Below the pieces are notes generated by a model. The model was given only the letters and a program-made list of their open reading frames with translations. It ran no database searches and was not told the origin of the DNA. 64,000 nucleotides of DNA, from NCBI GenBank assembly GCA_026770705.1, contig JANJGN010000014.1:90954001-91018000 (forward strand), given 5' to 3'. This DNA is from Isurus oxyrinchus. Lineage: Eukaryota. The translations under genes and the position numbers were made by a program. The first letter of the stretch is position 1. Each line of letters starts with the position of its first letter. Of this stretch, positions 4,624 to 60,104 are shown in pieces.

Positions 4624-5574
4624 AATGTCCTTTACAATGCACAGAAGGGAGAGCCAGTTAAGCCTGCAAGTTCAGTTCATGTCCCACAGAGTGGTGAGTA
4701 CAACACTGGACATTAACATGAACAATCCATAAGAATGAACGCAAAAACACATAAGTGTTTCTTCCACAATAAAAAAATGTTCTTAACTCCACTGTAACCA
4801 TCAATCCATGCCAACCATGAGGCATGCCATTATATTTGACTCTCTGACTAAGCTAGTCTCAACAAATAATGACGAAGCACATCTGAATAAAGTGAAACCA
4901 ATGTAAAGTGAAATACTTACAAATGAAATTTAAATTTGAGAAACACCATGCCGCCTTTGTGCTCTCAATAAGTCAATGCCAATAATATTAATGGCAATGA
5001 AGTTGTGCAGGAGAATTGTGGCCGTAATGAAGAGCCTCCTTATTTGTCCACAGGGAGCTTTTATAGCCCAACTGTATCTGCTGCTCTGTTGCTGATGGGT
5101 TTCACTACTGAGAATGTTCCCCTGCCATATGATTTCACCTGTCTCCCGTGCATGCCACCAGCACTTTGAATTTTAATTGCAATTGCATGGGAACAAACAA
5201 AGAGGAAGAGAACTGAAATGATGCCTACTTCCTGTTTCACCATCAGGAATGGCGTGCCATAGATAAAATTTCACCCATAGTATAAGTGCTTTTATGCCCA
5301 CTGCTCAAGCAGGCAGAAATAAATTAATCCTTAGAATGGGACTGCTAACCCTCCTGGTTTCAACTTGAGTCTGTAGTATAAAGGGTTAACAGAAGGGATA
5401 AGCTAATGTATGGTGATGTATCACTGACATCAGTAAGCCAAGTAGGTTATCTCTCACAACACACAGAGAGAGAGGTTGGAACAACATGCCCAGGAGCAAC
5501 ATGCCTACTCTGTAAACTGTTTAGATGTAGTACTAAAAAACAAGTGTTAAACAAGTACCAGAGTATGTCTACAG

Positions 5575-8574
5575 ATTTAAAAACAAAAATACTGCGGATG
5601 CTGGAAATCCAAAACAAAAACAAAAACAGAATTACCTGGAAAAACTCAGCAGGTCTGGCAGCATCGGTGGAGAAGAAAAGAGTTGATGTTTCGAGTCCTC
5701 ATGACTTCGACAGAACTTGAGTTCGAGTCCAAGAAAGAGTTGAAATATAAGCTGGTTTAAGGTGTGTGTGTGGGGGGCGGAGAGAGAGAGAGAGAGAGAG
5801 GGGTGGAGTGGGGGTGTGGTTGTAGAGACAAACAAGCAGTGATAGAAGCAGATCATCAAAAGATGTCAACAACAATAATACAAAAGAACACATAGGTATT
5901 AAAGTTAAAGTTGGTGATATTATCTAAACGAATGTGCTAATTAAGAATGGATGGTAGGGCACTCAAGGTATAGCTCTAGTGGGGGTGGGGAGAGCATAAA
6001 AGATGTAAAAAATAAATAAATAAATATTTTTTTTTTCTTTTTCTCTTTTTATAATGGAAATAGGTGGGAAAAGGAAAATCTATATAATTTATTGGAAAAA
6101 AAAAGGAAGGAGGAAACAGAAAGGGGGTGGGGATGGGGGAGGGAGCTCACGACCTAAAGTTGTTGAATTCAATATTCAGTCCGGATGGCTGTAAAGTGCC
6201 TAGTCGGAAGATGAGGTATTGTTCCTCCAGTTTGCATTGGGCTTCACTGGAACAATGCAGCAAGCCAAGGACAGACATGTGGGCAAGAGAGCAGGGTGGA
6301 GTGTTAAAATGGCAAGCGATAGGGAGGTTTGGGTCATTCTTGCGGACAGACCGCAGGTGTTCTGCAAAGCGGTCGCCCAGTTTACGTTTGGTCTCTCCAA
6401 TGCAGAGGAGACCACATTGGGAGCAACGAATGCAGTAGACTAAGTTGGGGGAAATGCAAGTGAAATGCTGCTTCACTTGAAAGGAGTGTTTGGGTCCTTC
6501 GACGGTGAGGAGAGAGGAAGTGAAGGGGTAGGTATTGCATCTTTTGCGTGGGCATGGGGTGGTGCCATAGGAGGGGGTTGAGGAGTAGGGGGTGATGGAG
6601 GAGTGGACCAGGGTGTCCCGGAGGGAGCGATCCCTATGGAATGCCGATAGGGGGGGTGAAAGGGAGATGTGTTTGGTGGTGGCATCATGCTGGAGTTGGC
6701 GGAAATGGCGGAGGATGATCCTTTGAATGCGGTGGCTGGTGGGGTGATAAGTGAGGACAAGGGAGACCCTATCATGTTTCTGGGAGGGAGGAGAAGGCGT
6801 GAGGGCGGATGCGCGGGAGATGGGCCGGACACGGTTGAGGGCCCTGTCAACGACCGTGGGTGGAAAACCTTGGTTAAGGAAGAAGGAGGACATGTCAGAG
6901 GAACTGTTTTTGAAGGTAGCATCATCGGAACAGATGCGATGGAGGCGAAGGAACTGAGAGAATGGGATGGAGTCCTTACAGGAAGTGGGGTGTGAGGAGC
7001 TGTAGTCGAGGTAGCTGTGGGAGTCGGTGGGTTTGTAATGGATATTGGTGGACAGTCTATCACCAGAGATTGAGACAGAGAGGTCAAGGAAGGGAAGGGA
7101 AGTGTCAGAGATGGACCACGTGAAAATGATGGAGAGGTGGAGATTGGAAGCAAAATTAATAAATTTTTCCAAGTCCCGACGAGAGCATGAAGCGGCTTCC
7201 TGTAAGGACTCCATCCCATTCTCTCAGTTCCTTCGCTTCCGTCGCATCTGTTCCGATGATGCTACCTTCATAAACAGTTCCTCTGACATGTCCTCCTTCT
7301 TCCTTAACCGAGGTTTTCCACCCACGGTCGTTGACAGGGCCCTCAACCGTGTCCGGCCCATCTCCCGTGCATCCGCTCTCACGCCTTCTCCTCCCTCCCA
7401 GAAACATGATAGGGTCCCCCTTGTCCTCACTTATCACCCCACCAGCCACCGCATTCAAAGGATCATCCTCCGCCATTTCCGCCAACTCCAGCATGATGCC
7501 ACCACCAAACACATCTTCCCTTCACCCCCCCCTATCGGCATTCCATAGGGATCGCTCCCTCCGGGACACCCTGGTCCACTCCTCCATCACCACCTACTCC
7601 TCAACCTCCTCCTATGGCACCACCCCATGCCCACGCAAAAGATGCAATACCTGCCCCTTCACTTCCTCTCTCCTCACCGTCCAAGGACCCAAACACTCCT
7701 TTCAAGTGAAGCAGCATTTCACTTGCATTTCCCCCAACTTAGTTTACTGCATTCGTTGCTCCCAATGTGGTCTCTTCTGCATTGGAGAGACCAAACGTAA
7801 ACTGGGCGACCGCTTTGCAGAACACCTGCGGTCTGTCCGCAAGAATGACTCAAACCTTCCTGTCGCTTGCCATTTTAACACTCCACCCTGCTCTCTTGCC
7901 CACATGTCTGTCCTTGGCTTGCTGCATTGTTCCAGTGAAGCCCAACGCAAACTGGAGGAACAATACCTCATCTTCCGACTAGGTACTTTACAGCCATCCG
8001 GACTGAATATTGAATTCAACAACTTTAGGTCGTGAGCTCCCTCCCCCATCCCCACCCCCTTTCTGTTTCCCCCTTCCTTTTTTTTCCCAATAAATTATAT
8101 AGATTTTCCTTTTCCCACCTATTTCCATTATAAAAAGAGAAAAAGAAAAAAAAAATATTTATTTATTTATTTATTTATTTTTACATCTTTAATGCTCTCC
8201 CCACCCCCACTGGAGCTATACCTTGAGTGCCCTACCATCCATTCTTAATTAGCACATTCGTTTAGATAATATCACCAACTTTAACTTTAATACCTATGTG
8301 TTCTTTTGTATTATTGTTGTTGACATCTTTTGATAATCTGCTTCTATCACTGCTTGTTTGTCTCTACAACCACACCCCCACTCCACCCCTCTCTCTCTCT
8401 CTCTCTCTCTCCGCCCCCCACACACACACCTTAAACCAGCTTATATTTCAACTCTTTCTTGGACTCGAACTCAAGTTCTGTCGAAGGGTCATGAGGACTC
8501 GAAACGTCAACTCTTTTCTTCTCCACCAATGCTGCCAGACCTGCTGAGTTTTTCCAGGTAATTCTGTTTTTGTT
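5575..8574. mobile_element. Head-to-head pair of 5'-truncated Penelope-like (Neptune-type) elements, one insertion
   Basis: Minus ORF 6147-7214 and plus ORFs 7196-8035 encode the RT C-terminus, a CPRKRCNTC linker and GIY-YIG (NLVYCIRC..CIGETKR..RFAEH). 15-bp TSD AGAGTATGTCTACAG at 5560-5574 and 8575-8589. Confidence 0.93.
8474..8512 (+). ncRNA. Minimal type-I hammerhead ribozyme motif in the Penelope 3' repeat (variant core CTGTCGA)
   Basis: AGTT-CTGTCGA-AGGGTC ATGAG GACTC-GAAA-CGTC-AACT: stem I AGTT/AACT, stem II, palindromic ACGT in place of stem III. Mirror copy at 5681-5717. Confidence 0.7.
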
Positions 8575-8713
8575 AGAGTATGTCTACAGTCTGTCTAAAA
8601 AGCAAGTCCCCGCCTTGAGTCCACAGATAAGAAGGACCATTTTAGAACTTCTTAAAAATGCAATGCTTCCTTCCAAGGTGAAGGTGAGAATCAAGAAATC
8701 GCCCTCAGGGGAG

Positions 8714-9498
8714 TGTAAAGAGAGAGAAATTTCTTACAATCCAGACAGCCATCGAAACTCTAAGGAAGAGTCATTAAAAATGCAAAGTACTGGATATAAA
8801 GTAATGGCTGCTACAGATAGATATATTCAAAACCTCTTGAAAATACACAATGGGTGAAATATTTCAAGGCAAGTCTGACCAACCACTAGGGAGATATTGC
8901 AAATGACACAGGTGATGGCAAGTAAGTCTTCAGCAGAGGAAACAGGCTGAGGACTACTCACTCACCTTCTCCATCCTTTAGAATGAGTGTGTCACCCTGT
9001 TTGAGAAGCCAACCCAACTAGAAACCTACCAGTAAACCGAGATCTCATAATGATAGCAACATCTACATCTGACTACATCCAAGAAACCTGCTGATCTAAA
9101 TAGGCCACAGCATTTAAAAACTATACTTCAAGCACAATCAAACTTAACAATCATACTTCACCATATATTCTTTTATCTTTTTTTTTATTGGGCTCTAACC
9201 CTCTTTATTTCTGATACCTGAATGTGTTTGGGTCTGAATGACTGCATGTGGGCCAAATGCTTGACGTCGCATTTTTATTATTTTTTTCAGGTTTAGAGGT
9301 TAATGAATCTGCTCTTCCTTCAACTCAAGAAAAACTTGTTTGATTAGCCCCTTGTTACTCACAGCTTAAATAGTTAAGTACATTCTGATTTGGAAAAGGC
9401 ATATCCTCGTTGAAAAAAGAAACTTAAACCTTTTTTGTGAACAACAAAGAGGTTGAACAGAGGGGAGGCAGTTGACCCCTTCTCACCTGGTCATAACA
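8714..9498 (+). mobile_element. LTR-like repeat
   Basis: TGT start after purine tract AGGGGAG; ends CCTGGTCATAACA like other LTR ends here; no TSD found. Confidence 0.4.
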
Positions 9499-9670
9499 AT
9501 CCTTAGTGAGTGGTGACGTTGGCATGCTTCTAGAAATCCGAGCAAGACTAGTTGATGCCCAGCATTTGAACAACACGACGTCCTTCATGGAACAATCTTC
9601 CACCTTTTATTTAGAACCAGCTGTCTATAGCAGCTGAGGAAGTCGACTCAATCTGGGGAAGATGTTAGCA

Positions 9671-10301
9671 AAGTGGTAATATCACTGGACTAGTAGTTAC
9701 AAGGAACAGCCTAATGATCTGTGGACAAAAACAAAAAATGCTGGAGAAAAGCTCAGCAGGTCTTACAGCATCTGTGGAGAGAAAGACAGAGTTAACGTTT
9801 CGAGTCTGTATGACTGTTCAAAAGAGTCATACAGACTTGAAATGTTAACTCTGTCTTTCTCTCCACAGATACTGTCAGACCTGCTGAGCTTTTCCAGCAT
9901 TTTTTGTTTTTGTTTCAGATTTCCAGCATTCGCAGTATTTTGTCTTTATCCTAATGATCTGTGGACATGGGTTCAAATCCCACCAGTGCAGCTGGTGGAA
10001 TTTAAATTCAATTAATAAATCTGGAATTATAAAGCAAGTCTCAGTAATGGTGACCGTAAAACTAGTATCAATTGTTGTAAAAAACCTATCTTGTTCACTA
10101 ATGTCTTTTAGGGAAGGAAATCTGCCATCCTTACTTGGTCTGGCATACATATGACTCCAGACCACACAGCAATGTGGTTGACTCTTAACTGCTCTCTGAA
10201 ATGCCTAGCAAGCCACTCAGTTCAAGGGCAATTACAGATAGACAACAAATGCTGGCCTTGCCAGCAATGACCACACCCCATGAAAGAATAAAGAAAAAAA
10301 A
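9671..10301 (+). mobile_element. tRNA-derived SINE, interrupted by a Penelope mini-palindrome
   Basis: A-box-like AGTGGTAAT and B-box GGTTCAAATCC; body shared with 25211-25554 and 40090-40442; 3' tail shared with the LINE at 29090-29525; A-rich end. Confidence 0.8.
9728..9949. mobile_element. Palindromic mini-insertion of two Penelope 3' ends
   Basis: Inverted arms centred near 9820; 18-bp TSD CCTAATGATCTGTGGACA at 9710-9727 and 9950-9967. Confidence 0.88.
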
Positions 10302-10363
10302 TACCAGTAAGTTGCCCTCTTTCGCAGAGACACCATCCACTAGACCCCAAGCAGATATTGAAG

Positions 10364-11422
10364 TGTAAAGTCCATAAGATATGAAAAAGATCACAAACTA
10401 TTTAAATCAAACCTTACATTTTTGCTTATTTTAAAGGTGGACCTTACTGAATTAAAAGAGGGCTGCTGTAGGTCACATGGTTCACAAGTTGGCTACAGTT
10501 TCTAAAAATTTCCAATAGCAATTACAGGACAAAACCTTAACTTTCATTCTTGTGGAATTTCACAGCTTTCATTGTGAGAACACATTACCAGGGACCAGCA
10601 GACAATTTGTCTCCCTAGCCTGGCCCTAACAAGGGGGAAGCCATTGAAACTCATTATACCTGTAGAGGCGCTAAAAACCACCATTTATCTCCTCAGGTGA
10701 ACAATGTATTTCGACCAGAGGAATATAAGCCACTTGTTAGCCTGCCACGAACTCAATGGGCAACATCACATGATCTAAGCTTCTAGCCTTTGGAAAGTTT
10801 TAATATTACATTTCTAGACTCGCAACTCAGTCTGCTGTTTAAACTCCAGCCTGAAAACATCAAAGCAGACTCCAGGCTGACCAATGGTCTGCATCAAATC
10901 TAAGCCTCCTCAAAACCTTTTCTCTGGAAGATTCCTACCATCGCCTGCTGAGCAGACCAAGTCCCTGTATACCAATGACATCCCATTGCATCACCATCAA
11001 CTTCAAAGGAATTCTGCAAAATCCTGCTTCAGCTAGCTGAACCGTAACTCCTCTGTGAAGGAACCCTCATTGGACTCTGACTTTCTGGACTTTGACAATT
11101 ACGTGAACTGATATCCACATCTGTGGTGCTTTCTCTTTTAAGTTATTCATAGTTGTAAACACTCCTTTTTACTATCTTCTTATTGTGTGCTTGTTTGTGT
11201 GTATGAAATTGTGACCATTCCCTGGGTTTGAATGTGTGAGTAAACTGTACTTCTGATTTAACCCTAAAAAGAGTTTGCTCCAAGTCACTTTAAAAATTGA
11301 CTCACAGAGGGCTCGGGGAAACACATCACAGCCTATTTCAAAAAATCAAAACACCACTGCTTACAGACAGATGCCGAAAACATAAAGGAGTTCAGTTTTG
11401 CATCCCTCCCCTGTCTGTAACA
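10364..11422 (+). mobile_element. Solo LTR
   Basis: TGT...ACA termini with a perfect 4-bp TSD GAAG on both sides. Confidence 0.72.
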
Positions 11423-13199
11423 GAAGTTAATCTCTCAATTCTTCATTGAAGTTAGACCAGAGGTAACGGATACAGAAGACACTGCAACAGATGGTGACCA
11501 TCCATAAGAAGACCTACTGGACCTGAATTTGCTCTTTCCAGAAGAAGCCATTGTAACACTGGGTGATCTGTTGGGGGATGAGGTCTTATAGGTTGGTCTG
11601 TCTTTGCAATCAATAGATACAACATACAAAGTTTCTGTTTTTTTTTTCAGAAGTTAGCTGTGCTTCCAGTGGTTGAGCAGCATTCAGATCTTTGCTCCAC
11701 CGAACCTACTAATGTATTGCCTAGTCTATCTCTTGTTGTTCATGAGGAGTATTCCAGAGAGAATGACTTGCCTGAGTCCATGTCAGAGTCCATAGAGGAT
11801 CATACTGGCAAAGAGCTGGTACGTTCCATGGGTAAAAGTCATGTGACACCTGTATTTCAGTCCTAACTGAATGTCTTCTTACCACTAGAGCTGTATGCCA
11901 GTACAAAAGCTGTGGCAGAATCTTTAGCACTTCTAAAGCTGCAGAATCCTGCACAACAATCTTGTCTCCAAGTTAATTGCCTACAGGAAGTTCATCCCAT
12001 TATAGAAGATGGTGCTGTCTTGTCTCCATATCTTCAGCAATTCTTCTCATTGCCCGGAGTGAAGCAGCGTAATACAGAGAAAAGTATAGCTCTCTTATAA
12101 CTGCCTACAGAAAATGTACTGTTCCTCTGAAGTATCACCGGGAAATCATCTCTTCATCTTTTCTTGAAAGGCTTACAGGAATTTAGTTGTTTTCTTTCTT
12201 CATCATTTATATTCCTTGAAATCTCAGATCTTCAATAACTTATCAATATTCTGTGCAGCAGTGAATGATACAGCTGTGACAGTCTTCCCTGGAGATGAAG
12301 ATCATCCCTCTTTTCCTGTGTGCTTCAAGGGAGCAACAAGTTCCTCAGAGTCCTGAGTTCTTCTCTTCTAGTCCGAGAGAGTCCAGAGGTTGATGCACTT
12401 CAGTCTTCTCTCTTGGATAAGTCTTTCATTGCAAAAGACTTATTGTCCTGGCAGTTCAGTCATCCTGAAACCTACACCTTCCAGCTGCTAAATTGCTGCC
12501 CCATTCTGACAAAGATGATGTACTTCAAGGCAAAGAAGAAAGCCCTCATGTTTCCAAGACTGCTTCCATAAGGGCCGAGAATAATGTGGGAGACTGAATG
12601 CTTCAGGACTCTGACTTGGGGAGGGGGAAGAGTAGGAGTTCGAATTGGGTAGAAGCTGTAGTTGTGAGAAGGGAGTTATAGAAATGCAATGTGAATAGCT
12701 AACGATATAGGGTGGAATTTTCTGTGCCCGTTGGTGTCAAGCATCATGGCAACGTGAGCAGACAAAACGGTAGGAAGGCCAAAAATCGGTTTCAAGACGT
12801 CGTGAAACCAGATTGCGATCGTCCACTTCACCCGTCAATGGCGGGCCACCTTTGCTGGACATCAGGAACTTAATTTTAATATATCTGCATAATACATCAG
12901 CCCTGCTCGCTGGAATCATCCCCCATGCCAAATGTACTGCCCACATCAGCGAGAAGAGACCCCAGTGCAGAACACGTTTTGACAAGTGTGATGTGCAGAA
13001 GTCGAGACTTACCTTACTCACATCGCAGGCATCCAAGGAGCAGAAGATGCTGGAGCCCTACAGCAACAGGACCCTGGAGGAACACATGGGTGGACTCAGG
13101 TGCACATGTCTCCGCCGTGAAGCAGCTCATGGAAGGTGGAAGGTCACCGTTGAGGGTCTGCTTCGGGACGTCAGTGTCTTGGGCATGATTTGCTACCGA

Positions 13200-14180
13200 T
13201 GATCGTCGACCGGGTGGAGAGGAAGGTCTAGCTGTGAGTGGGACAGGAAGGTGTACTGGGGGAATAGGTGAGGGATGGCGTGTGGTTGGGAGGGGGGAGT
13301 GATGGTGGCAGGGGAGTGAGGTTGGGAGGAGAGGTGAGTGTACGGGGGTGGAGGGTGTAACGGGGGAGTATGTGGCAACTAGGAAGATATGATTAAGGGG
13401 GGAAGAAGGAATAAGGGAAGGAGTTCAGATGGGGGAAGGAGTGGGGGGGGGAGGAGTTTGGAGGGGGAAGGGCTTCAGGTGGAGCAAGGAATTTGGAGGG
13501 GCAGTGATGAGTCCGAGGGGAGGAAGGAGTTCAGGGGGGGAATAGTTCTCAGGGGAGAAGGAATCCAGGGGGAGGAATGAGTTCAGGGGAGGAAGGGAGA
13601 AAGGAATCCAGGAGCAGGAAGGAGTTGTGGGGGAGGAAGGAGTTCGCAGGGGAGAAGGAGTCCAGGGGGAGAAAGGAGTCCGGGAGGGGAGAAAGTAGTA
13701 AGTGTGGAGGAAGGAGGAAGGGTGGAGGAAGGGGTATAAGTGGGGAAAGAATAAGGGAGGGATGTCCAGGTGAATGTGCAAAGGAGGGGTCTGTGGAGTC
13801 AATGACTGCCTCCTGAGGAGCGAAATGAGGGTGGGGGCGGTAGGAGGGAATGGTGTGAATTAGAAAGGATAAAGTGAGCCGGTAGGGTAGGAGGGTGAGG
13901 GTGCGTGGGTAGTGGTAGAAAGATCGGTTAGGGTGGTTGTTAGGGTCTCAGAGGCAGACACAGACCCTGGAGTTGGGAAGGAGTTGTTCGCGGAGATTAA
14001 TTTGGATGGGGGTGGGATTCTCAAGAAGATAGGGAATGTACATGTTCATCCGGACATCCCGGAAAGAAAAAGGGTTCTAGCTGGTAGGTGACAGTGGGGG
14101 AGGTAGAAGGTGATGCAAGCGGGGTGAACAGTGATGGTGGATAGGACATGGGTGACTGGGGGAGGGGAAAGGATGGGGGA
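13200..14180 (+). repeat. Purine/G-rich low-complexity tract with degenerate ~18-bp units (GGGGAGGAAGGAGTTCA-like)
   Basis: Units visible at about 13510-13690; strong G/A strand skew. Confidence 0.7.
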
Positions 14181-14639
14181 GTTAAAGACAAACTTCACCA
14201 GTACCACCTTGCAAAATCGAAAGTGAAAGGAGCCTCATGTTGGGTGGGAACAGGTGATGCATGGGACTGCGATGAGTGGGTGGGCGGAGATATAGATCAG
14301 CTCAGATGGACAACTGAAAGAGAACCCGGCAGGCAGCATTGAAAATGCTCGGGACATTGAGATGTGTGTGATGGAAGAAGGATCCGTGTTCATAGGAGAG
14401 TTCTTCCACGAGGCTCCAAAAAGGCTCTGCCACAGACACTTCTCCCTTCAGAGTTACTCGTGCTGCGTGCTGCTGAACTGCTAGTGGTGAGGTGAGGGTG
14501 GGAGGGATGCAGGGAGAGGACTCGCTGAGTCTGTCAACGAAGCTGAAATACACTGTTACACATTATTCAGTGAAAGTGAACATATTTTCAGATTATAAAG
14601 TGACAAAACCTGTTCACCTATGTGACCACTTATGATCAG

Positions 14640-16358
14640 AAATTTTTAGCTTTTCTAGGTCCACCACTTCTTCTAGGTGCTGCCCTGATATCCGCAGAAG
14701 GGTTGGAGACAGACGCTGCAATGGATGGCCCTGTTGCCTCTGATGACTTCGATGTGGGTCCTCTGGAGAGCCAAGGTCTTGGGAGCCCCGGCTTGCTTTG
14801 GTTGTCCTCCTGTGGGCCAGCTTCCCACTCTGCGGTGACAGTGGACAAGATTGAAGGGGGTCACAGACAAAGGGGACTCAGAGGGAGAGGGCAGCCTCTG
14901 AGATTCTGGTTGGATGATCCAGGGGTGTCCAGCTGCTGCTCCTCCTCCTTTTGAGTGTCTTATGGCCCCGGCCTGACTCCTTGAGGGGAAGGAGCACCTG
15001 TAGGAACGTCAAGGTGCCTGTTTCCCCCTTGCATTGCCACTGCAGGAGCTCACCCATAGCTACCACGATGAAGTGCAGGTTTGCATGCATCTGCACATTC
15101 TGCTGGATCAGGTTCTCCCATGGCATCTGCCATTCTTCCCATGGAGAACTCCATACGCAGACATGTAGACACCGCTTCATCAGAGAGTAGGCGGACACAC
15201 TCCTTCGACTTGCATGTCACCCTAATGGGGGCTTCCAACAGCTCTGCATGATGTTCCCGCGCCATCTGCTGACTCTCCACGATGAGGCGGAAGGCCGAAT
15301 CCAGAGGCTCGTCATCTGACTTGGACCTCACAGATGCCTCTTCCCCAGCAGTCCTTCGAATGCAGGGCAGTTCAGCTGAACTTGCCTCGTCCTGCTGTGG
15401 ACATGTGTTCATGCACTAGCCACCAAATTGTGAACTCGAGCCTGCTCTAAATCTAGGTCCCACCGAGGTGTGTGTCTCTGTGCTGGTGGAGGGTGTGGCT
15501 AAGTGCTGTGATGGGTCTTCCAGGCTGCTTATTTCCAGCTCTTCATTGGGGGTGGTATCCTCTTGGCTAGACATGCGGACCTGGATGGAGCTGAGGCAAT
15601 GGCTGGCTGGGGGTGGTTGGTCGCTTGGCAGAGCTTCCTGTGAACCTGAGATGATTAGTGCATGACAGCAGAGTCAAAAGCAGAAGAGAGAGCACTCACT
15701 GTTGCATTGAGAGAGGGATGATGTGGTGCAGGACCCTCTCATGCGTGTTCGCCACCGACCTCACTGTTGCTGCTGGCATGGTTCGTGTCCTCGCCAGCCA
15801 GCATGGTCCTCAAAGTGAGTGAGAGGCCTAATGTGGGCCACTCCACCCCAGGTCTGGGACCTTCTCCTGCTGCTGTGAGTCAGCTGTTCCTGCATGTAAA
15901 TAGACGGAAAGAGTGTGAGGAGGGCACATGGCACAGGAGTGTTTGTGTGGTGAGCAGAACTAGGGACAGGATGAGGATGCGAGCTCCAGAGAATATGAGC
16001 CTGATGGAGATGTGAGGGTGTGTGTGAGAGTTAGTGGTGTTATCGCTTGAGGTGTGAGATCCCTGTGGATGTGTGATGGGTTTGTGAGCATGAATTGAGT
16101 ATGATGAGAAGAGTGACTTACTCCAGCAGAATGGAAGAGATCATTCTTCCTCTTCTTGCACTGAGTGGCTGTGCTCTTTTTCAGGGAGTTGGCACTGACC
16201 ACTTTTGCTTCCCATGCAGGATTGGTGGCATTGCTTGCTGGCCTTCACCCAGAGCGGAGATAGAGGACATCGCGGCGGGCCTCCACTGCATCCAGTAGGT
16301 GCTTGAGGGAGGCATCGCAAAATCTGGAGGCAGCATGTTTCCTTCCTTTGGCAGCCAT
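14640..16358 (-). pseudogene. Harbinger Myb/SANT-like DNA-binding gene, spliced and decayed
   Basis: Exon 16358-16122: MAAKGRKHAASRFCDASLKHLLDAVEARRDVLY..SANSLKKSTATQCKKRKNDL, then GTAAGT donor; downstream low-complexity/coiled-coil exons. Confidence 0.8.
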
Positions 16359-16681
16359 CAGTTCACAGCAGCTCCCTATCCCTTGAAGAGTGCAAGCTCT
16401 TTGCAGGGCGGTCTTTAAATATGGCGCCCGGTTTACTGAAGACCTGATGTGACAGGTGGCAGTCAAGTGGGAGGATGCTCTGCCAGCGACCTGGCATGTT
16501 TCCTGGGAATGCATGATTAATGAGGCGGGATTGGGATGATATGGCGTGAAAAGCCACCATTGCCACCAGCGGGTAAATCATCTTTTTTCCCACCCACTAC
16601 CGCACTTAGTGCAACTCTGGGATGATTCTGCTCATTGTTTCACGTTGTTGTTAAAAAATAAATAGTATATTTCATGGGAGG

Positions 16682-16953
16682 TGTAGTATAAAGGGTTAAC
16701 GGAAGGGATATGTTAACATATGATATAGATGATATTTCACTGACATAAGTTAGTCAAGCGTTAGACTCACTCTCTCTCTCCTTCTAGGGAGAGAGAGAGA
16801 GAGAGAGAGGTTGGAACACCATGCCCAGGAGACTCTGTAACCTGTTCAGATGTAGTAATAATAAACAAGTGTTAAACAAGTACCAGAGTATGACTGTAGT
16901 CTGTCCAGTAGCCAAGTATCATGCCTCAAGTCTATGGATAAGAAGGATCATCA
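16682..16953 (+). mobile_element. LTR-like repeat, same family as 5372-8641
   Basis: TGT...TCA, internal AATAAA, preceded by GGGAGG. Confidence 0.65.
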
Positions 16954-17859
16954 GAACACAGTCTCCCTAAATTGGTGGTTCCTAACCCAAATGCTGCTGC
17001 TGTCAGTTTTGGAGAAAAATTTGTTGTATTGCTAGTCTTTGCATGCGTGACACTGTAGTTTGTGCAGGGTGAATGAACCCTGGGACACCATTCCACCATC
17101 ATCAGTTTTCCTTCAGATGCCAGTTTCATTCGGTTCCACAACATGCTTCCTGGCCTCTAGTCCAGTGACCACAGAGCTGCAATGCTGGGGTCAGCTGGTG
17201 GCAGAAACAGAGAGTTAGGAACCCAGGGTACATCAGAACTCAATGTTACAGCCGGGATGGGCAAAGCGCGCAGTTGATCTAGCCCCACTACTCCACAGGT
17301 CAGAACATTATTTTGAAAGTTTAATTTACTCACCAAAATAGCCAATTGTTTACCTTCACTCCTGGTACCCAGAATAAAAAACAAGCAAGGGAGCTAGAAA
17401 TGAAGGCTTTGGGAACAAGGCAGAATGGGGCATGGGAGCTGGGAGGAGGAACCAGGACTAGAGAGATGGAGGCAACTGGGGAATGGGGGCTTGTGATCAG
17501 CTGTTACATTTTGGAATGTTACATGATCAAATTGCAAGAAAACTCCAATCAGAGTTAGCAACCCAGCTTCATAGAACTTGGAATCCAACTATGTAGATAA
17601 ATGATTGCAATTTAGGGAAGGTAGCCACCCACCAGAAGTCTATTTTCTATACTAACTGACATCTTTACAGGAAACGAGTGTTTGGAAGCCTCTGGAATCT
17701 GAGTTTGCAGCCCAGAAACACTCAAGGACCCTCCAGCATTACAGCAATACAAAAGAAAATGTGCTCTGTTGAAGAATACTGCAGATAATAATAGAATGCA
17801 TATTTCTGTGAGTAGTCCAAGAGCAAAAATAAGGCTAACAGAAACTTAATTCCATTCAG

Positions 17860-20800
17860 ATGGATAGAAATTCAACTATGTTGATTTCAGGGAACTTGGA
17901 CACACCAAATGGCAGTTCTTCAGACATTGGTGAATTTGACCACCCTTGCAATGCAAGGTCTCGGACTTCCAACAAAATTGGATCTCTGTCCAATTCCTTA
18001 TTTGCTTTGCACAAACAGGTGAAAAGTCCAAGAAATTCAGCACAAGCACAACTTCTTGTGGCACTGGAGCAAGTACAATGCTACCTGGTAATGAGAGACA
18101 ACTGAGTGCATCTGCATTTGCAATATGCAAGCCAGGACGGTGCATAAAGATATAATCATACGCTGATAATATCAAAGACCAATGTTGAATTCTTGCTGAT
18201 GCTATTGGTGGAATGGCCTTATCCTCACTGAATAAACCCATTAATGGTTTATGGTTTTACACAATGGTGAAATGTTGTCCATGCAGATACTGGTGGAATT
18301 TCCTCACTCCAAATATTACTGATAAACCTTCCTTTTCTAGTTGAGAATAACCCTCCTTGGCTGCAGAGAGGGTTCTGGAGACATAGCAGATTAGCCTTTC
18401 TGAACCATTTTCCATTCGATATGATAACACAGTTCCCACACCATAAGGAGACGCATCACATGTTAATATTAATTCTTTTGACGGGTCGTAATGCACCATG
18501 AGTAATAGCTCTTTAACTTTCACAAAGGCTTCTTCTTATTGCGAATTCCATGACCAACAATGATTATTTCTTAACAAGTATAATGGTGCTAACACCGTTG
18601 ACAAGTTTGGCAAAAAGCAGCTGCAATAATTGATCATGCCCAAAAAAGACTTGAGTTCAGTTACACTGGACAGAGAGGGCACCTCTTAGATTGCCCTAAC
18701 TTTCTCTTCAACTGGATGCAACCCCATGGCATCCACCTGGTGACCCAGGTACATAATTTCTGGTGATTGGAATGTACGTTTCTCTTTCTTTAATCATACA
18801 CCGGATTCCAAGAACCTTCTTAACATCTCTTCCAGGTTGGCCAAATGTTCGGCGACAGTTGACCCTGTGATCAGAACATAATCTAGGTATGCTACTACTC
18901 GGAGAAGTCCTTGCAAAAGACTCTCCATTGTCCTTTGGAAGATTACGCATACAGACAATACTCCAAAGGATGGGTGGGTATATTGATACAAACCCTTGCA
19001 CGTGATGATGGCTCCATAATCTCTAGACGTGCTATCCAGCTCTAACTGTTGGTATGCATGGGTCATGTCCAGTTTGGTTTAGGATTTGCCTCCAGTTAGC
19101 TTTGTGTATAAGTCATCTATCCTCAGGATAGGATATCTAGTTTAGCTGCCTTGTTCATGGTCAATTTATAGTCCTCGCAAATGTGTAGAGTTTGATCAGG
19201 TTTCACCACAGGGACCGTGGACGTTGTCCATTCCAAAAGCTGGACTGGTTGGATGATGCCTAGCTTTTCTAAGTGGCACAATTCTGCATCCACCACCTCC
19301 TTTAGGGCATAAGGCACAGGTCTGGCCTTAAGGAAACGGGATATCGCCTGAGAATCTACATATATTTTTGTTTGCAAGTCTTTTAATTTTCCTAATTCAT
19401 CATGAAATACATTGTTGTATTTCCTTAGCAGTTCAGGAATTTCTCCTGTTCTCATGTGAAATATTTCAGAACAGTTGAGCTTAATTTTTTGTAACCAGTC
19501 TTAGCCCAGAAGACTAGGTCCTTCACCTGTCACTATAATCACTGGAAGCTGGACTGTCTGTTGCCTAAAGGACACAGGTACTGTGGCAATGCTCTTTACC
19601 TGTATGGAATCTCCAGTGTATGTCTTCAACTGAGCCGTTGTTCATTCCGGATTCAGTGACAGGTACCCTCATTTAGGTATTTAAATGTGTGCTCTCCCAC
19701 TACTGTAGCTGAGGCTCCCGTATCTACCTCTATTACTAGTGGCTTCCCATTCACTTGAATTGTGACGTTTATAGGTTTAGTTTTTACTGCTTTGACATTG
19801 TACAGGGAATAGATATCAGTATCAGCAGCTTCAGGTTCTGATATATTATTCACTTAAATCATTTTGATCTGCTGCCTTAAGGACTGTCTCGATTTCGGCC
19901 TGCATTGCTTTATTACGTGACCTTTCTTATGGCAGAAATGGCATTCTGCCTCCTTGAATCTGCAGGTTTCCGGTACGAAGTTACCACCACATCTATAACA
20001 GATTAACCTTGGAGTCACTGCTGAAATGTTTCTACTAGTTCTTTTCATTTTTCTAGCAGCAGAGATTGTCTCTCGCTTCGCTGCTGTGTTTCTGGCTTTT
20101 GTGCCAGACCCAGTGGTAGATTCCCACCCCACCTGAAGAATAGCGCCATGTTGCACATTCTGTAAAGCCTGCAAGTCACTTGCAGCATTTCCATGGCTAG
20201 TAATGTTTCCATGGCGCGCTTCAAATCGATGTTGACTTCTGCGAGTAAATAGCGCTGAATGGCGTCGTTGTGAACTCCACAAACGAATCGGTCCCATATC
20301 ATATCATTGAGTGTGTCTCTGAAGTCGCAGTGCTCAGTCAACTGCTTCAACTTCACTTTATAGGTTGCGATGGACTCTCCTGGAGCCCTTACTCTGCAGT
20401 TAAACTTAGATCTCTGCGAAGTTGGCTCCGACTGAAAATGTGTCTTCACGAGGTCTACTTATTCATTAAAAGATTTAGAATTCAAGGCCATCAGACTGCA
20501 GATGAGATGGTATGTCTTGCTACCACATACACTCAAAAGGATTGCTTTTTGCTTCTCCTCTGCAGTTATTTCATTCGCCACAAAATAAAAACCAAGGCGT
20601 TCTACACACTGGCTTCAGTCTTCCATAGACACATCATAAGGGTTGATTCTGTCTAAGAGTGATTCTGCTGAAGGCATGACTGGTTAGTATACTTGTCTTT
20701 TTTATCTTAAGAACTGATGTATTCACGTTCACAAAATGAGGTGCAGTGCCAGCGCTATTTTACCCTCGTCGCCAAATGTAATGACTTGAAGTACTGGACA

Positions 20801-22563: not shown

Positions 22564-22864
22564 ATGTGCATCTCCTCCATGACCACCCAAATTAAAAGAA
22601 AACTCCCGCCAAAGGAGGGAGGGTTAGGAACCTTATTAATTCTGGAAATGAGTTCTTTCTGCCATGTAAAGATGAAAATCTGGATCTGTTTCATGATTCT
22701 GCACTTTTGACTTTTGTCCCATTCATATATGTGAAATGCAGGTATTCATCAAGTCAAAGGGGAGGATAGAGGAGTTAATATTTAAATAATGCTCAACTTT
22801 GAAGCTTGGATTGTATTCATGCTAGAAGCTTCAAGTTGCCTCTTATAGTCAAGTTTACACGAGG

Positions 22865-24762
22865 ATGGTCTGATGGCTCTCCGCTTCTTCCTCGAACAGA
22901 GGCCCGAGCAATCCCCATCCACCACTACTCTCCTCCGTCTGGCTGAACTTGTTCTCACACTGAACAATTTCTCTTTTAACTCCTCTCACTTCCTCCAAAT
23001 AAAAGGTGTGGCTATGGGTAGCCGCATGGGCCCCAGCTATGCCTGTCTCTTTATGGGGTATGTGGAACCTTCCTTGTTCTAGTCTTACTCCGGCCCCCTC
23101 CCACAACTCTTTCTCCAGTATATCGATGATTACTTCAGTGCTGCTTCATGCTCTCGTCGGGACCTGGAAAAATTTATTAATTTTCCTTCCAATCTCCAGC
23201 CCTCCATCATTTTCAAATGGTCCATCTCTGACACTTCCCTTCCCTTTCTTGACCTCTCTGTCTCAATTTCTGGTGATAGACTGTCCACCAATATCCATTA
23301 CAAGCCTACCAACTCCCACTGCTACCTTGACTACAGCTCCACACACCACGCTTCCTGTAAGGACTCCATCCCATTCTCTCAGTTCCTTCGCCTCCATCGC
23401 ATTTGTTCTGATGATGCCACTTTCAAAAACAGTTCCTCTGACATGTCCTTCTTCTTCCTTAACCGAAGTTTTTCACCCATGGTGGTTGACAGGGCCCTCA
23501 ACTGTGTCCGGCCCATCTCCCGCGCATCTGCCCTCACGCCTTCTCCTCCCTCCCAGAAATATGATAGGGTCCCCCTTGTCCTCACTTATCACCCCATCAG
23601 CCTCCGCATTCAAAGGATCGTCTTCCGCCATTTCCGCCAATTCCAGCATGATGCCACCACCAAACACATCTTCCCTTCAACCCCCCGGCGGCATTCCGTA
23701 GGGATCGTTCCCTCCGTGACACCCTGGTCCACTCCTCCATCACCCCCTATTCCTCAAACCCCTCCCACGGCACCTTCCCATGCAATCGCAGAAGATGCAA
23801 CACCTGCCCCTTAACTTCCTCTCTCCTCACCGTCCAAGGGCCCAAACACTCCTTTTCAAGTGAAGCAGCATTTCACTTGTACTTCCCTCAACTTAGTCAA
23901 CTGCATTCGTTGCTCCCAATGCGGTTTCCTCTACACTGGAGAGACCAAACGCAGACTGGGTGACCGCTTTGCAGAACACCTTTGGTCTGTTCGCAAGCAT
24001 GACGCAGACCTCCCTGTCGCTTGCCTTTTCAACACTCCACCTTGCTCTCATGCCCCACATGTCTGTCCTTGGCTTGCTGCATTGTTCCAGTGAAGCCCAA
24101 CGCAAACTGGAGGAACAGCACCTTCCGACTAGGCACTTTACAGCCTTCCGGATTGAATATTGAGTTCAACAATTTTAGATCATGAACTCTCTCCTCCATC
24201 CCCAACCCCTTTCCGTTTCTTCCCCCTCCTTTTTGTTTTTTCCAATAATTTATATAGATTTTTCTTTTCCCACCTATTTCCATTATTTTTAAATGTATTT
24301 CCACCATTGTTAATCTCTACCTTTTAGCCCTTTTAGTATTCTTTCACCCCACCACCACTAGAGCCATCTGTACCTTGTCTGTCCTGCCTTCTACTCTTAA
24401 TTAGCACATTCCTTTAGATAATATTAACACCTTCAACACCTCATTTGTCTTTTTGTCTGTGACATCTTTTGCTTATTTCCACCTATTACTGGCTGCTTGT
24501 CGCAACAACCCCCTCCACCGCACCCCCCACCCCCCCCCCCCCCACCCCCCCACCCCCGCCCCCCCCCTTCACCCGGCAGCTTAAACCAGCTTATATATCA
24601 TCCCTTTCTTATTTTTACTTAGTTCTGTTGAAGGTTCATAAGGACTCGAAACGTCAACTGTGCTCTTCTCCGCCGATGCTGCCAGACCTGCTGAATTTTT
24701 CCAGGTATTTCTGTTTCTGTTTTTGTTTTGGATTTCCAGCATCCGCAGTTCTTTGCTTTTAT
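22865..24762 (+). mobile_element. Penelope-like element, 5'-truncated (RT core to 3' repeat)
   Basis: KGVAMGSRMGPSYACLFMG, YIDD (TATATCGATGAT), GIY-YIG remnant, hammerhead-like motif at 24621-24659. Confidence 0.92.
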
Positions 24763-25210
24763 CTATTGCACAAGAGGTGCTTCAGTTTTTGTACAGCTTC
24801 TTGTAAAACCTTTCATTTTGATTCAAACATTGCACATATTGATTTGGAGTGCAGTAAATGTTTTGTATCACAGCAATGTGATACCTTAGCATTCCCACTG
24901 CATTCCAAGCATCTCTTCCATTTTCCTTAGATAGTTTTCTTCTAGTGCCCTCTGATTGATCCTACATTAGTATGAGAGTTTTATAGCAGTTTGTTTATCT
25001 AGAAAACTGGAGGGATATGAAACAAATTTAAGAAAAGCCAAATTTAATAGAGAGTAGGAATTAAGCCCAGTAGGACCAAGGGCAATGAAGGTTGTTTTAC
25101 TCTACCTTCAAATGTCTCCATGAAAAAAGTTAAGTGTTATTGATTTACTGCACTTACAGGCTAAACTATAGCTCCACTTGAATGTCCGTTACCAATGCAA
25201 TCACTGCAGG

Positions 25211-29525: not shown

Positions 29526-31926
29526 AAACACATTTTAACAAAAGTGCCCAGACTGTAAACCAGGGCTGTGTTGATCAGTAGAAAAGTAACTCTGGGAAGC
29601 TACGTCATCAGGACTGTTGTCATGAGGGGGAGAGGGCTCGTAGAAGGAAACCGTGTCAGTATTAATCATATCCAGGGACCTCAGATGGAAGCAACTCGAG
29701 AGCCAAATCCATTGAGTGGGAAATGTGAGAGTTGGAAAGACTGAGACTGCATACGATGTCGCTTTTGTGCAAGGAGTGATGTGAATGCTTGTAATTTTAT
29801 GAGACCTATCTTTGTTGTATTGATTATTTGAAGAGAAATTCATCATTTCTATTGAAATACCATTTATCTGTGCTTAATTTTATATGGATTTTAGGTTTGA
29901 ATGTTACAGTAAAAGTTCTAAAAAGTGAAATCTTGTCCATCGATTCCTTGTGTCAGGAGATCCCTTTCTCTTCAAGCTATTGGTCCCTATGGGTATCATA
30001 ACATTGTTAATGGCAATTGCTCCATATTGTGTTCCTTTTTCCTCTAAACACAAACTGGAAAAAGCAACATGAAATGCACAAATAGATGCATTATTTTTTC
30101 TTCTTCTTTGCATATATTTTCGTGTTTCTTTTAAGGCTGGAAAACTTTGGCTACATCAAGGTGAGGTAAGCGAGTTATGGATAATGGAAAACAGAAAATT
30201 TCCTTAATGTCAGCAGCACACATTCTTTGGGCAGGTATAGCGCTGGTTAAACACGGATTGGTACACTGCTTCAAAATCATAAAAAACCCTTTGTGTGCTG
30301 TTTTCTGTTTTCCACATTGGTCATCCCAAACTTTGGATGGTTCCAACTGTGGTTTAAGTGAGATTTGTGCTGAATGAGGTGCAATTTTATGCTGTTTTAT
30401 CACATCTACTAGGAATCAATTTGAGAATTTTTTTAATGTAGCTTCTTTCAGGTCAGTATCACACATCAGCCTAGAGAACTGGCAAAAGTTGATATATGTA
30501 CCTCAGGCCCTTCCCTATTAAATTTTGATTTTGAAGCTTTATTTCTTGAATTTTGAAGCCTATTGAAATTCTGCCTTTCAAGTTAAAACAATGGTAGAGC
30601 GGCAATCAGAGTCAAATTGCCACTTCGCTCCGAGTTACTTACCTGGAAGTCCAACAACTCCTTTCTTGCCCGACCTTTGGAGTCAGGCCGGGCGAGAACT
30701 GTGTAGGGCAGCCGCTCCTGAGGCCTTCAGTCGAGGGCTGGAGAGTCAGAGGTAAGGAAGCTATACCCTCTTTTTTCCAGCACTAGCTGCCATAATGCAG
30801 GTAAGTCTGGGGGTTTCAGTCAGTTGGTGGATGGGAGGGGTGGGAGTTGGTCAGTGGGAGTTAGCACGAGAGTTACCCAGGTGTTAGAAGTGGTTTTAAT
30901 TCTTCTAGCTTTTCCTGAGGAACTATTACTGTAAGACAGTAGGAACCATCCAAAGTTTGCTATTAATATCATACTTTTTGGATGGTTCCGATTGCCCAAC
31001 TGAAGTTTGAACTTCCCAGATAGTTGCTGGGCAATCCTTACCTGGGGCCTTCAGGGGTGGGGTGGGAAGTGGGGGGCATGGGGAAGTGGGGGTTCCCCAG
31101 TGCATCCCGAAATTATGACACCAGGAAGCTCGGAAGTTACGGACCATTTTCTCTGCACAGGTTAGATACTTACAAAATAAAATTTAAATAATTTGTTCAG
31201 AATTCAATACCATTTCACAAGTTTGAATATGGCTAACACCAGATACATCATGTTAATTTACACACTATAATCTTACACTACACAAACCTATAATAATTTC
31301 CGCCAATATTGCAAAATTGGCACACTATCACAATTGTCCGAGTGGGTGAGTCACCATCACTGAAACATATCCATAGAAATTAACTCTAATGAAGTTGTTT
31401 CCATACATAAACCTGTTTTTAACTCTTTCAAAAACAATTGCACCCTACAATCATTTCAAAAAGACTAAAATGCTCAAAAATGTATTGGGATGAATTTTAT
31501 GCACTTGGTTGGACCAGACTGATTAACTCAAGTCTAGAGTTTGCAACATGTTATACTTTTATTGATTTTTATTGTCACTTCTCAAATTTTCCCATTGACT
31601 TTGACCACTATAATACGGATTGTGCAGATTTTCTTCTCAGTCACTGTTTGATAACAAACAGACCGCCATTATGAACATGTAAACAAACTGAAAATCTCTT
31701 TCAGTTACAGAAGATAGCCCAATATTATAAACCATCCACAAAAAAACTGCTCACAACATACATCGTGGTCATACACTGTAGTAAAATCTTAAATATGGTG
31801 ATGTCAGCATAATGATTTAAAGTAAAATTAATTACCCATTCGCATATTTCCAACCATACTACCTGTTTTATTTCTAAAGGCTGATAATTCTACATCTGCA
31901 TTGACAGGTATGTTCATATAAAGCTA

Positions 31927-32072
31927 AAAGCAAAAAACTGCAGATGCTGGAAATCCAAAACAAAAATAAAAATACCTGGAAAAACTCAACAGGTCTGGCA
32001 GCATCTGCGAAGAGGAACACACCACAGATGTTGCCAGACCTGCTGAGTTTTTCCAGGTATTTTTATTTTTGC
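31927..32072. mobile_element. Palindromic mini-insertion of two Penelope 3' ends
   Basis: Inverted arms; 14-bp TSD TTCATATAAAGCTA at 31913-31926 and 32073-32086. Confidence 0.88.
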
Positions 32073-34609
32073 TTCATATAAAGCTATTTGGTGTATTCAT
32101 GGCAAAACAAGATCTGCAACTTAATTTCAACTTATACACAGGAAAACTGTCAGGTGTGCTCTAGGGAGTTCCTTTCAGGAAGATTAGAATATTTTAAAAG
32201 TTGGATTTATTTAGTATGTTTTTGAGGATAAATACTAAGCAAAAGCATTTACAATTGCAAGTCTTAGAAACCATTGGATAGTCTGAAAATGTTTTTATCT
32301 GAAGTTTGTGCACAACCAGCAGGAGGAGAAAGTGACATGCAGGAGAAGTGTGCTTCTACAAATTCTCATTTTCATTATCTAATCAATCTAATTGATTCAT
32401 GCTGACAACTTCCAATCCCAGTGAAAAATGCTGATTTTCTTCATACATTGTAACCTCTCCAGTCCAATTCGGAAACACCAGTTGTCCAGAAATTTTTTGA
32501 CCAGACCGAAGCATTCCTTCGACATCATTGGCATCACTTTAGTACAGTACTTTGAAAGCAGAAATACAGAAGATACAGTATTTGGATAGTAAAACAATTT
32601 TCATTACTGCCTTATAATGTTTCATCACTGTTTTATGTTTCAAGTAACTGTTTATATATTAGTTCACATTCTTGTGGTTAGGCAATCTATTCTCATTCTA
32701 TAATTCAGAAAATTCCAAAATCAAGAAATTATTTGGTCCCAAGCATTATGGACTGAAAAGTTTACAGTGGCACTCTGGCAAGCTGTCATGAATTAAAACA
32801 TTGGGCATCATATTAAAAAGTCTATGATGTCATGTCTGCACAAATTAACACCTGTGCCACTCAATCTTTTGTCAAGTTACTGTACTTCATACTTCTTCCC
32901 TTGGCTGTCACCAATCTCCAGCTCTTGCTTTTCTCCCTCTTCATTACATTAATCACGACATGGGAAAATGATTACCAACTTCCCTTGAACAGAGAAAATC
33001 TTCATTCCAGTGATCATTTTACCAGTATCTTTTACGGTCTAGTTATCTTGCACTGCAGGTTACTGTTCAGGTTACTTCATTCCTTTATTCATTATGGCTG
33101 CAGTAATATCAACATCTGAACATACAACAGTGATGGACAGGAAAAGGTCCATCCAGTTTCTCCCAACTACTGCAATGCCTTGTGCATCACGCTGTATACA
33201 AGGCAACTCACCTGAAAACCATGTAAATCTCCTGGGAGATTGTATGAGTTTTTTTAGTCAAGCCTGTACTTCGCATGACTGAAAATTTGTTTATCTATAG
33301 AATATCTGGGATAACATGCCAAGGGGTGAATAATGAATTCTTATACCATTAGGTTATTCTATTCAAATTGTGTAGGACTTCAACATATAATCTGATTTCT
33401 TGAAGTAGAAAAGCACAATTGGAACAATAAAACTCAGGTTAAAATTAATTAAAATTTAGCCTAAATTTTTTTTACAGAGTAAATTATCAGATTACATGGC
33501 AATGCATTCATTCATTAATTAGTACATTTCAAAGTTTTGTTTTGAGTTCAGCATAACAACTTGCATCAAGATTCTTAGGTCTTTTTCCACCCTCGCTCCC
33601 AAATACTTAACTAATGCATATACTAGATACGCACCAAGCCACGATAGTGTTCCAGTTCACTGTTGTGACATGAAGCTATATGGATGAATCACATGGAGCT
33701 GCATTTAACGCACCGCACCCCTGGGAGTGGGTTGGCAGGTGGGCGGAGGAATGTAAAAGTGGGCACAATGGCGTGGGCGCTATTCCCAGCACCCACCTGC
33801 CTGCGCCTTCCCACACTGCAATGTTACACATGGCAGGGATGGCATCAGAAAGGCCACCCACCCACCTGCAGGTCATCTGAGGCCCTTACATGGTCAATTA
33901 ACAGCTATTTAAGGGCCTCCTGATCCCCACTACAACTGGTCCCCTGTCAGGCGGAGATTGGTGCTAAGTGTGAAGTCCAGCAGCATTCATTATCCGGGCT
34001 GATGGCAGGAGGGGGCACTCTCCTTTATGGCACCGCCCAGGGCAATTAGAGGCCCCATCCATAGTCTTCCTTCTAACCTTGGGTTTGCCCACCCTTCCCA
34101 GCCTGTCCACCATGGCCTCCCAAACCTGCCAGCCTGGCCATGGAAATACTAGGCTACACCAACCCCACTTACCTTGGTGTCCGGCTCCAGAAATGATTGC
34201 CTTTAAGGACTGGATGCAGTCCCAGCAGTGACCCTGAGACTAAAGAGCTTCTGGCCATTTGGTTGGCATGCAACTCTGAGGCGGGACCGCCTCCCCAGAT
34301 GGAGGCAGAAGTCTCACCTCAAGCCACACAAACTGGGTAGGCTCACTCCAAACAGTTACACCAGAGGGGCAAGGACACCAGCTGAGCTTAAAATAATAGC
34401 CTTGAATTAAATTATTTTTAATCCTAGACGAAGATGTGCATTCGATTCAGAATTACTCTTTCTTCTAACCTTGGGTTTGCCCACCCCCCCCCCCCCCCCC
34501 CCACCCCCCCCCCCACCCCCCCCCAGCCTGTCCACCATGGCCTCCCAAACCTGCCAGCCTGGCCTTGGAAATACTAGGCCACACCAACCCCACTTATCTT
34601 GGTGTAAAA

Positions 34610-56603: not shown

Positions 56604-56699
56604 ATCTTCAGCATTTCTTACCCCTTTAACTTATTTCAGTATTTTACACTCAGGACAATGTAACTACGATCATATTATCTTTGCCAGCATGTGAACAAT

Positions 56700-59600: not shown

Positions 59601-60104
59601 TTTAAACATCTCCCCACTGGGTTCTGATCTGGAAATAAATCCTGCCTCATCTACTGGTATCTCGTTTTTAACTGCCACTTTTCTAAGCTGGAATTCTCTG
59701 TCTCTCTTTTTCACTCTTTCCTCCTTTTCTAACTTTGCCATTTCTAATTCCCTTTCTTGTTTTCTTTCTCTCTCTTGCCTTTCTGCCGAAAATGATCTTC
59801 CTTTTTCTTTTTCTGCTGCCTCCAGCTCAAGTTTTTTAATTTCCTTTGCTTGTTCAAGTTCCAGCTTCTTCAATTCTAACTGAAGTCTCACTATCTCCAG
59901 CTGTGACTCACTAGTGTCAGCCATCACTTCCAACTTTACATGCTGTGCTATACTTTCAATTATGTCTGCCTTTCTAGCTTTGGCAGGCAATCCTACTCTT
60001 AATTTACCTGACAATTTGATTAACCTGGCTTTTGGAATCCCTTGTAAAATCATCAGGGTCATCTCTTCCACTTGCAGGAAAGCTTTAGCAGTTTCCAGTG
60101 CCAT
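56700..60104 (-). pseudogene. gag-pol remnant in PR-IN-(RT)-RH order
   Basis: LPKFEERDVEAFFISFEKIA..WP; CFPCNKVGHICSEC; CKTCHTCQ; DCEGPLPKTKAGHQYILTIMD; YHPQT; fused to GFYQKFVSNFSTIAVPLTNLL..PVLATPDFTKPF. Confidence 0.9.

Follow-up and report, generated by a model that had tools for sequence, protein, structure and literature searches.

Architecture of the head-to-head pair

Positions 5560–8589 of the window, the 64,000-nucleotide stretch of Isurus oxyrinchus contig JANJGN010000014.1 (assembly GCA_026770705.1) analysed here, hold two 5'-truncated copies of a Penelope-like element (PLE) that face each other head to head within a single target-site duplication (TSD). The left TSD copy of 15 bp (5560–5574) is followed by a 44-nt 3' tail (5575–5618, minus strand) in the sense of PMC8557442, PMC3846280 and PMC11167929, which only the left arm carries. 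Next come the left-arm 3' untranslated or pseudo-long-terminal-repeat (pseudo-LTR) region (5619–6146, minus strand) and a 5'-truncated open reading frame (ORF) fragment of 349 open codons (6147–7196, minus strand), which comprises the thumb of a reverse transcriptase (RT), a Cys linker and a GIY-YIG endonuclease. The two arms meet at a head-to-head junction with a 5-bp micro-palindrome (7189–7199), from which the tail-less right arm (7195–8574, plus strand), with an ORF remnant at 7198–8035, extends to the right 15-bp TSD copy (8575–8589).

When the reverse complement of 5619–6985 is aligned to 7196–8574, 1340 columns match, 27 are substitutions and 12 contain gaps; the arm-to-arm likeness is 98%, and substitutions occupy 2.0% of 1367 columns. 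Twenty-three of the 27 substitutions are transitions and 6 fall at CpG. A preliminary description had proposed that these two segments are near-identical and that both 3' ends point outward; the alignment confirms the first claim, and the opposite strands of the two ORFs, 6147–7196 (minus) and 7198–8035 (plus), confirm the second. The same description had placed a spacer of about 210 bp between the arms. The 210 bp at 6986–7195 (minus strand) are in fact additional 5' element sequence of the longer left arm, lacking a right-arm counterpart, through which the frame remains open; the entire left arm (5575–7196) aligns to another family copy at 23140–24761. The arm coordinates proposed earlier also omitted the tail, since the 3' side of the left arm reaches 5575, 44 nt past the 3' end of the right arm. 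Depending on the register chosen within a TTTTTG run, the tail measures 38–44 nt. The right arm thus falls short of the left arm on its 5' as well as its 3' side, and it carries a +1 frameshift in a C run near 7525.

The 349-codon frame aligns to residues 458–800 of an 803-residue relative with 48% identity. The best match likewise has 48% identity, and a match from the shark Chiloscyllium displays 59% over 57% of the query; the latter and the end motif of the family suggest a cartilaginous fish as host. Among the 77 longer relatives retrieved at E ≤ 0.001, most contain PF00078 and several contain PF01541, and direct Pfam matches at the locus are weak (E 0.025–0.065, with 0.065 for PF01541 in the left-arm frame) and lie below the cut-off. 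The RT core is missing at the locus through 5' truncation. The 5' truncation, an adjacent inverted truncated copy, a TSD around the whole unit and a one-sided tail were all found, and on the features tested the element is an endonuclease-positive PLE with a predicted RT followed by a C-terminal GIY-YIG endonuclease.

Two Cys residues lie between GIY and YIG, as part of what may be compared with the CCHH motif that PMC8557442 defines for PLE endonucleases, and His residues at 280 and 296 are candidates for its two His positions. The linker between RT and endonuclease reads CX4CxxC and is intact in the right arm; in the left arm its last Cys is replaced by Tyr through a private change at 6529. 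A CX2-5CxxC linker belongs to the definition of the Neptune clade (PMC8557442), and both this linker in the right arm and the Cys pair inside the GIY-YIG core resemble Neptune PLEs. The linker is not exclusive to Neptune, however, as Nematis has the same motif. Thus the linker points to a placement in Neptune or Nematis, a likeness by motif only.

The 3' region of the family contains a minimal hammerhead-like motif, detected with a pattern of our own at 8478–8508, 5685–5713 and 24625–24655, with U at core position 6. The canonical hammerhead core has A at this position. A private 2-nt deletion affects helix II of the left-arm motif (around 5685–5713), and a further copy at about 41975 displays a canonical-looking core. 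Rfam returned no hammerhead at E ≤ 1, and over 5400–8800 it gave merely two chance XIST matches. The tail region (5575–5680, minus strand), like five other tails, can pair with the sequence just upstream, which leaves the tail-less end in a U-rich loop; folding z-scores are weak, at -2.2 here and -0.8 to -1.9 in five other copies. The predicted arm-to-arm duplex of 2777 kcal/mol merely restates the inverted repeat. RNA-labelled sequencing runs hold 0.17–0.40 of the words, a fraction uninformative on this locus given the thousands of family copies. The long dsRNA hairpin that the preliminary description envisaged would require transcription, of which no evidence was found for this locus. The locus is most likely an inert fossil.

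Target site and evidence for a single event

With both strands of the 64 kb considered, the 15-mer occurs at 5560–5574 and 8575–8589 only, and among 1988 random pairs of 70-nt windows none shared an exact word of at least 14 letters and one shared a word of 13. The target belongs to an older repeat, of which an uninterrupted paralogue is located at 16682–16957 (plus strand) with both flanks in register. This paralogue contains the TSD 15-mer once, at 16885–16899 (12 of 15 letters equal), and it aligns to the left flank up to the target in 166 of 224 columns and to the right flank from the target onwards in 54 of 75. A paralogue with a single in-register 15-mer shows that the duplication is real and that the 3 kb entered without loss of target DNA; almost certainly, therefore, one insertion took place. 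The earlier proposals of a single 15-bp TSD around the pair and of one insertion event thus stand, the former because the 15-mer lies at both ends only and the latter through the single TSD, the paralogous empty site and the rare alleles common to both arms. That the palindrome is the product of one event can be held with high confidence.

Contigs from two sequencing runs of one sample match 5501–5599, comprising flank, TSD and 25 tail bases, without a difference; the 25 element-side letters fall below the 31-letter bar for bridging, and the sample is possibly that of the assembly itself. Of the two outer junctions, this read comparison covered the left one. In a second organism the flank differs at 12 of 898 letters. 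A raw-read run of the second organism gave a depth of about 6,500 over the ORF against 0.3–1.4 over the flank, a ratio corresponding to roughly 5,000–20,000 family copies at 95% likeness. Within the 64 kb the family yields 10 alignment matches at 8 places, self-match excluded; all these copies are 5'-truncated, and in-window copies are 13% and 17% distant from the arms.

The allele comparison comprised 40 listed differences out of 315, of which the 28 in the insert were counted and the 12 in the flank left out. At these 28 sites the left arm departs from the family majority; the right arm has the non-majority letter too at 13 of them, 12 are private to the left arm and 3 fall in sequence that the right arm lacks. 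Some of the shared letters are ancestral or common. At sites 5898, 6218, 6403 and 6733, where both arms depart from the family majority, only 1.4–2.0% of reads lack the majority letter, a fraction taken from the reads of the second organism; for the same majority letters the share is 90–99% by contig depth in the organism that matches best. As these rare sites are linked, a fair bound for their occurrence in two unrelated copies is about 1–2% and not the product of the single frequencies. The 27 differences between the arms split into 11 on the left and 16 on the right, or into 6, 14 and 7 unclear when in-window outgroups alone are used. Shared and private sites are interleaved (21 runs, P 0.87), thus giving no sign of conversion tracts.

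Four of the seven shared ORF changes are non-synonymous, and these include a Tyr to Cys replacement in the YIG motif. At the residue concerned, 265, the alignment of 16 relatives shows Tyr in 15 and a gap in the remaining one, and both arms have Cys; at site 6403 and its right-arm mirror, 98.6% of family reads imply Tyr. The sharing of rare alleles together with the private nature of the differences points to one template lineage for both arms. Its source was probably an aged copy with a damaged endonuclease, the YIG Tyr being replaced by Cys, and this copy likely moved in trans. The private transitions lean towards C>T on the plus strand (14 against 6 G>A) and are mostly non-CpG, a bias that is not significant (P 0.12). 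The preliminary description had proposed to distinguish one template from two by whether the arm differences are mostly CpG decay or subfamily-diagnostic; neither pattern was found, as only 6 of 27 lie at CpG and the differences are private to one arm.

Proposed priming of both target strands and alternative routes

At both 3' ends of the target, antisense element sequence follows at once, entered at the tail end on one side and at the tail-less end on the other. In vitro, a PLE protein that is predicted to dimerise cuts and extends both target strands, and its RT has two neighbouring internal start sites, whose positions agree with the boundaries of the tail (PMC11167929). The reading favoured here, which we consider probable though by no means secure, is that the pair consists of 5'-truncated PLE copies for which both nicked target strands primed reverse transcription in one event. 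The GIY-YIG endonuclease, probably as a dimer, would cut the two strands 15 nt apart. The top-strand 3'-OH (5574) would start cDNA synthesis at the downstream RT start site and generate the tailed arm, and the bottom-strand 3'-OH (8575) would start at an upstream site about 40 nt away and generate the tail-less arm. The two RT runs would stop 210 nt apart and their cDNA 3' ends would be joined via at most 2 nt (GC), perhaps aided by a short snap-back leaving the 5-bp palindrome, after which fill-in would fix the TSD. The template may have been one RNA or two RNAs from one source lineage. Each arm would afterwards have decayed by about 1%; the published shark rate is given per generation (PMC10587355).

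The junction itself reads GAAGC-G-GCTTC (7189–7199), as previously described. Past 7193 family reads continue with AGC and the window has GGC, so that the junction may represent either a 2-nt GC overlap (7195–7196) with a substitution at 7194 or the addition of one untemplated G. The accompanying claim that the two joined element positions share GCTTC is valid for the family majority, most reads of which carry C at 6986, and fails for the left arm, where this base is changed. With GCTTC shared, both cDNA ends would read GAAGC-3' and would be identical rather than complementary, which limits annealing to at most the 2 nt of the terminal GC and rules out GCTTC as an annealing microhomology. A 5-bp stem is expected in 5% of random joins and was observed at 2 of 7 junctions. 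The junction palindrome is thus suggestive at most across loci, and as a general rule it was rejected as weak.

Two further inverted pairs, both miniature, are located in the window. The second (9710–9967) is head to head with an 18-bp TSD and a 39-nt tail on the right arm only, and the third (31913–32086), also head to head, displays a 14-bp TSD and a tail of about 34 nt on the left arm only. All three pairs in the window therefore combine one TSD with a one-sided tail. The layout, which the preliminary description had treated as unusual, is the one published for PLEs, in which a truncated copy lies inverted next to the element, a single TSD encloses the unit and the tail is confined to one side (PMC8557442, PMC3846280). 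Separately, the junction of the pair near 9.7 kb lies within a self-complementary hammerhead-like region.

Outside the window, 80 relative loci from metagenome contigs were all compared with themselves, and the 13 with an inverted arm on the element were examined. Four of the 13 combine a TSD with a one-sided tail, namely L033 (16 bp), L039 (13 bp), L062 (13 bp) and L055 (10 bp, exact), and in all four the tail is located on the shorter arm. The tail-less arm is longer on its 5' side by 1190 nt in L033, 986 nt in L039 and 937 nt in L062; L055 is a weaker case, with a later insert within its arm. These loci contradict a rule by which the tailed arm is always the longer one. Seven of the 13 run off the contig or are complex. 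At the related locus L068 (380–2406), the inverted part holds a 3' piece as well as residues 372–483 and the forward part begins at residue 483, a non-overlapping inversion that is more like L1 twin priming.

The most serious competitor to dual priming is a fold-back of one cDNA, to which we assign a minority share of the probability at this locus. A cDNA started from the tail end would stop at 7196, its 3' GC would pair 210 nt back and self-copying would proceed until about 44 nt before the starting point, and the other target strand would then copy or join the hairpin; the self-priming on an antisense template proposed by Arkhipova et al. (2013, PMC3846280) is a variant of this route. A fold-back predicts that the tail-less arm always lies within the tailed one, and it accommodates the nesting seen here and in the pair near 31.9 kb, the rare alleles common to both arms and the junction palindrome. 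In contrast, it cannot yield L033, L039, L062 and L055, since a tail on the shorter arm is incompatible with a simple fold-back at those four loci. Unless a cut is added, it also leaves unexplained why the second arm stops at this one tail boundary in all three pairs; only 2 nt would pair at the fold, and stems of 5 bp, at their low random rate, were seen at a minority of the junctions. Of the two routes that the preliminary description had left side by side, dual-strand priming is preferred and fold-back is disfavoured as a general route by the related loci.

Several observations weigh against priming of both target strands. The tail-less arm is nested at both ends here, as a fold-back also predicts, and the pair near 31.9 kb is likewise nested while that near 9.7 kb is ambiguous. 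Head-to-head palindromes have been read in the literature as products of self-priming on antisense template (PMC3846280). The rare shared non-synonymous alleles fit equally well the copying of one DNA strand or an early gene conversion. If a single RNA served both arms, its 1.37 kb would have been reverse-transcribed twice, which would require strand displacement. The arms of L001 and L050 both end at the same point, and no TSD was found at these loci. The four discriminating loci belong to a different family (39–44% protein identity) and to other animals, and the central junction (7189–7199) is not among the read rows listed.

A more specific form of the dual-priming reading states that inverted PLE pairs record a dimer priming both strands at adjacent start sites of one RNA, with the rear enzyme displacing the front cDNA. 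This proposal is tentative. If true, it would explain together why the tail is one-sided, why the arms overlap over such a length and share rare alleles, and why either arm can be the longer one.

A single ordinary insertion followed by an inverted duplication at the DNA level, or by gene conversion between the arms, is improbable. The non-synonymous share among the common ORF alleles resembles neutral decay before the arms split. Against such a history, the end of the second arm coincides with the tail-less site and lies directly next to the TSD, which also holds for the other two pairs, and shared and private sites are not patchy, with no long identical tract. Two independent insertions, of which the later one hit the 5' end of the earlier, are very improbable and nearly refuted: the family is dense, occupying 8 places within the 64 kb and numbering thousands of copies in the genome, and the arms differ by 2%, yet a second TSD is absent, the arms are not separated by target DNA, the alleles found in both arms are possible in at most about 1.4–2% of family reads, and the in-window copies are 13% and 17% away. 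An assembly or library artefact in the form of a palindromic chimeric read is scarcely credible, for although assemblies are known to be error-prone at long inverted repeats (PMC8557442) and the listed read rows do not include the central junction, a chimeric read would give near-identical arms rather than 27 substitutions, 23 of them transitions, split 11 to 16. Nor would it generate a TSD that agrees with the paralogous empty site, and the contigs described above, from two runs of one sample, show no difference across flank, TSD and 25 bases of the tail.

Neighbouring elements and comparison with known systems

A longer family copy, 5'-truncated, tailed and 13% distant from the left arm, occupies 22858–24763 (plus strand); neither an inverted partner nor a TSD of more than 6 bp was found for it. 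An LTR retrotransposon extends over about 54225–61150 (minus strand) with LTRs about 87–90% alike, both interrupted by PLE pieces. In its left LTR region lies an older single non-inverted PLE copy (55262–56611) with a tail and a candidate 8-bp TSD (55271 and 56604). The coding strand of the retrotransposon displays an integrase zinc-binding domain before the RT/RNase H domain, an order we take to be that of Gmr1-type gypsy elements. A degenerate G-rich minisatellite of 17–18 bp is located at 13382–13732. A Pfam search of 49 of the 64 ORFs of at least 110 residues revealed no convincing host-gene domain, although short exons would escape it, and returned two weak sub-threshold matches and two LTR-retrotransposon domains. 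A DNA pattern for the family end motif gave 0 matches in metagenome contigs and 0 in viral contigs; one match in a bacterial assembly was taken as chance and was not used.

The pair resembles the inserts of endonuclease-positive PLEs (Craig et al. 2021, PMC8557442; Arkhipova et al. 2013, PMC3846280) in its head-to-head truncated copy and single TSD, and similarly in its one-sided tail (30–40 bp in the published inserts), its junction palindrome and the order of RT and C-terminal GIY-YIG. Rotifer PLE inserts carry inverted pseudo-LTRs with TSDs of 8–10 bp, the head-to-head arrangement being the most frequent (PMC3846280). In contrast, the TSD measures 15 bp here and 14–18 bp across the window. 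Unlike the published inserts, the inverted arm of 1.37 kb includes the ORF and is not a pseudo-LTR alone, and the locus is without a full-length copy or a direct pseudo-LTR. PAc, a Poseidon element of Anolis characterised in vitro (Frangieh et al. 2024, PMC11167929), displays two adjacent 3' ends that define the tail, as here; both target strands are usable as primers, and a hammerhead is found in the end region, where the present family has a candidate motif. PAc belongs to a different clade, and its start sites lie in an AC-rich stem-loop, whereas U-rich tracts around a weak stem-loop occupy this position here.

L1 twin priming also involves priming by both target strands, a TSD of 12–18 bp and internal joining of cDNAs (PMC11702581). 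Its second priming is internal, near the end of the first cDNA, and is often accompanied by deletions or duplications of only 1–10 bp (PMC11702581); the inverted and non-inverted segments hardly overlap (PMC11702581, PMC12350158). In contrast, both primings would here take place at the 3' end, the arms overlap over 1367 aligned nucleotides and there is no poly(A). An L1-type twin-priming inversion was thus rejected on the long overlap and on the termination of both arms at the element 3' end (PMC11702581, PMC12350158).

The layout is already known and the locus is an ordinary one, one of many decayed copies. It nevertheless constitutes a clean example for the mechanism of PLE integration, which is called undefined in PMC8557442 and PMC11167929, and its value lies in an empty-site paralogue, one template lineage and relatives in which tail side and arm length are uncoupled. 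The relation of tail side to arm length discriminates dual priming from fold-back; no paper on such a test was found by title or by the start of the abstract, in a search from which subscription journals were mostly absent. If inverted pairs do record a dimer acting on one RNA, a ready data set on PLE integration would be available in a shark-like genome that carries them by the thousand.

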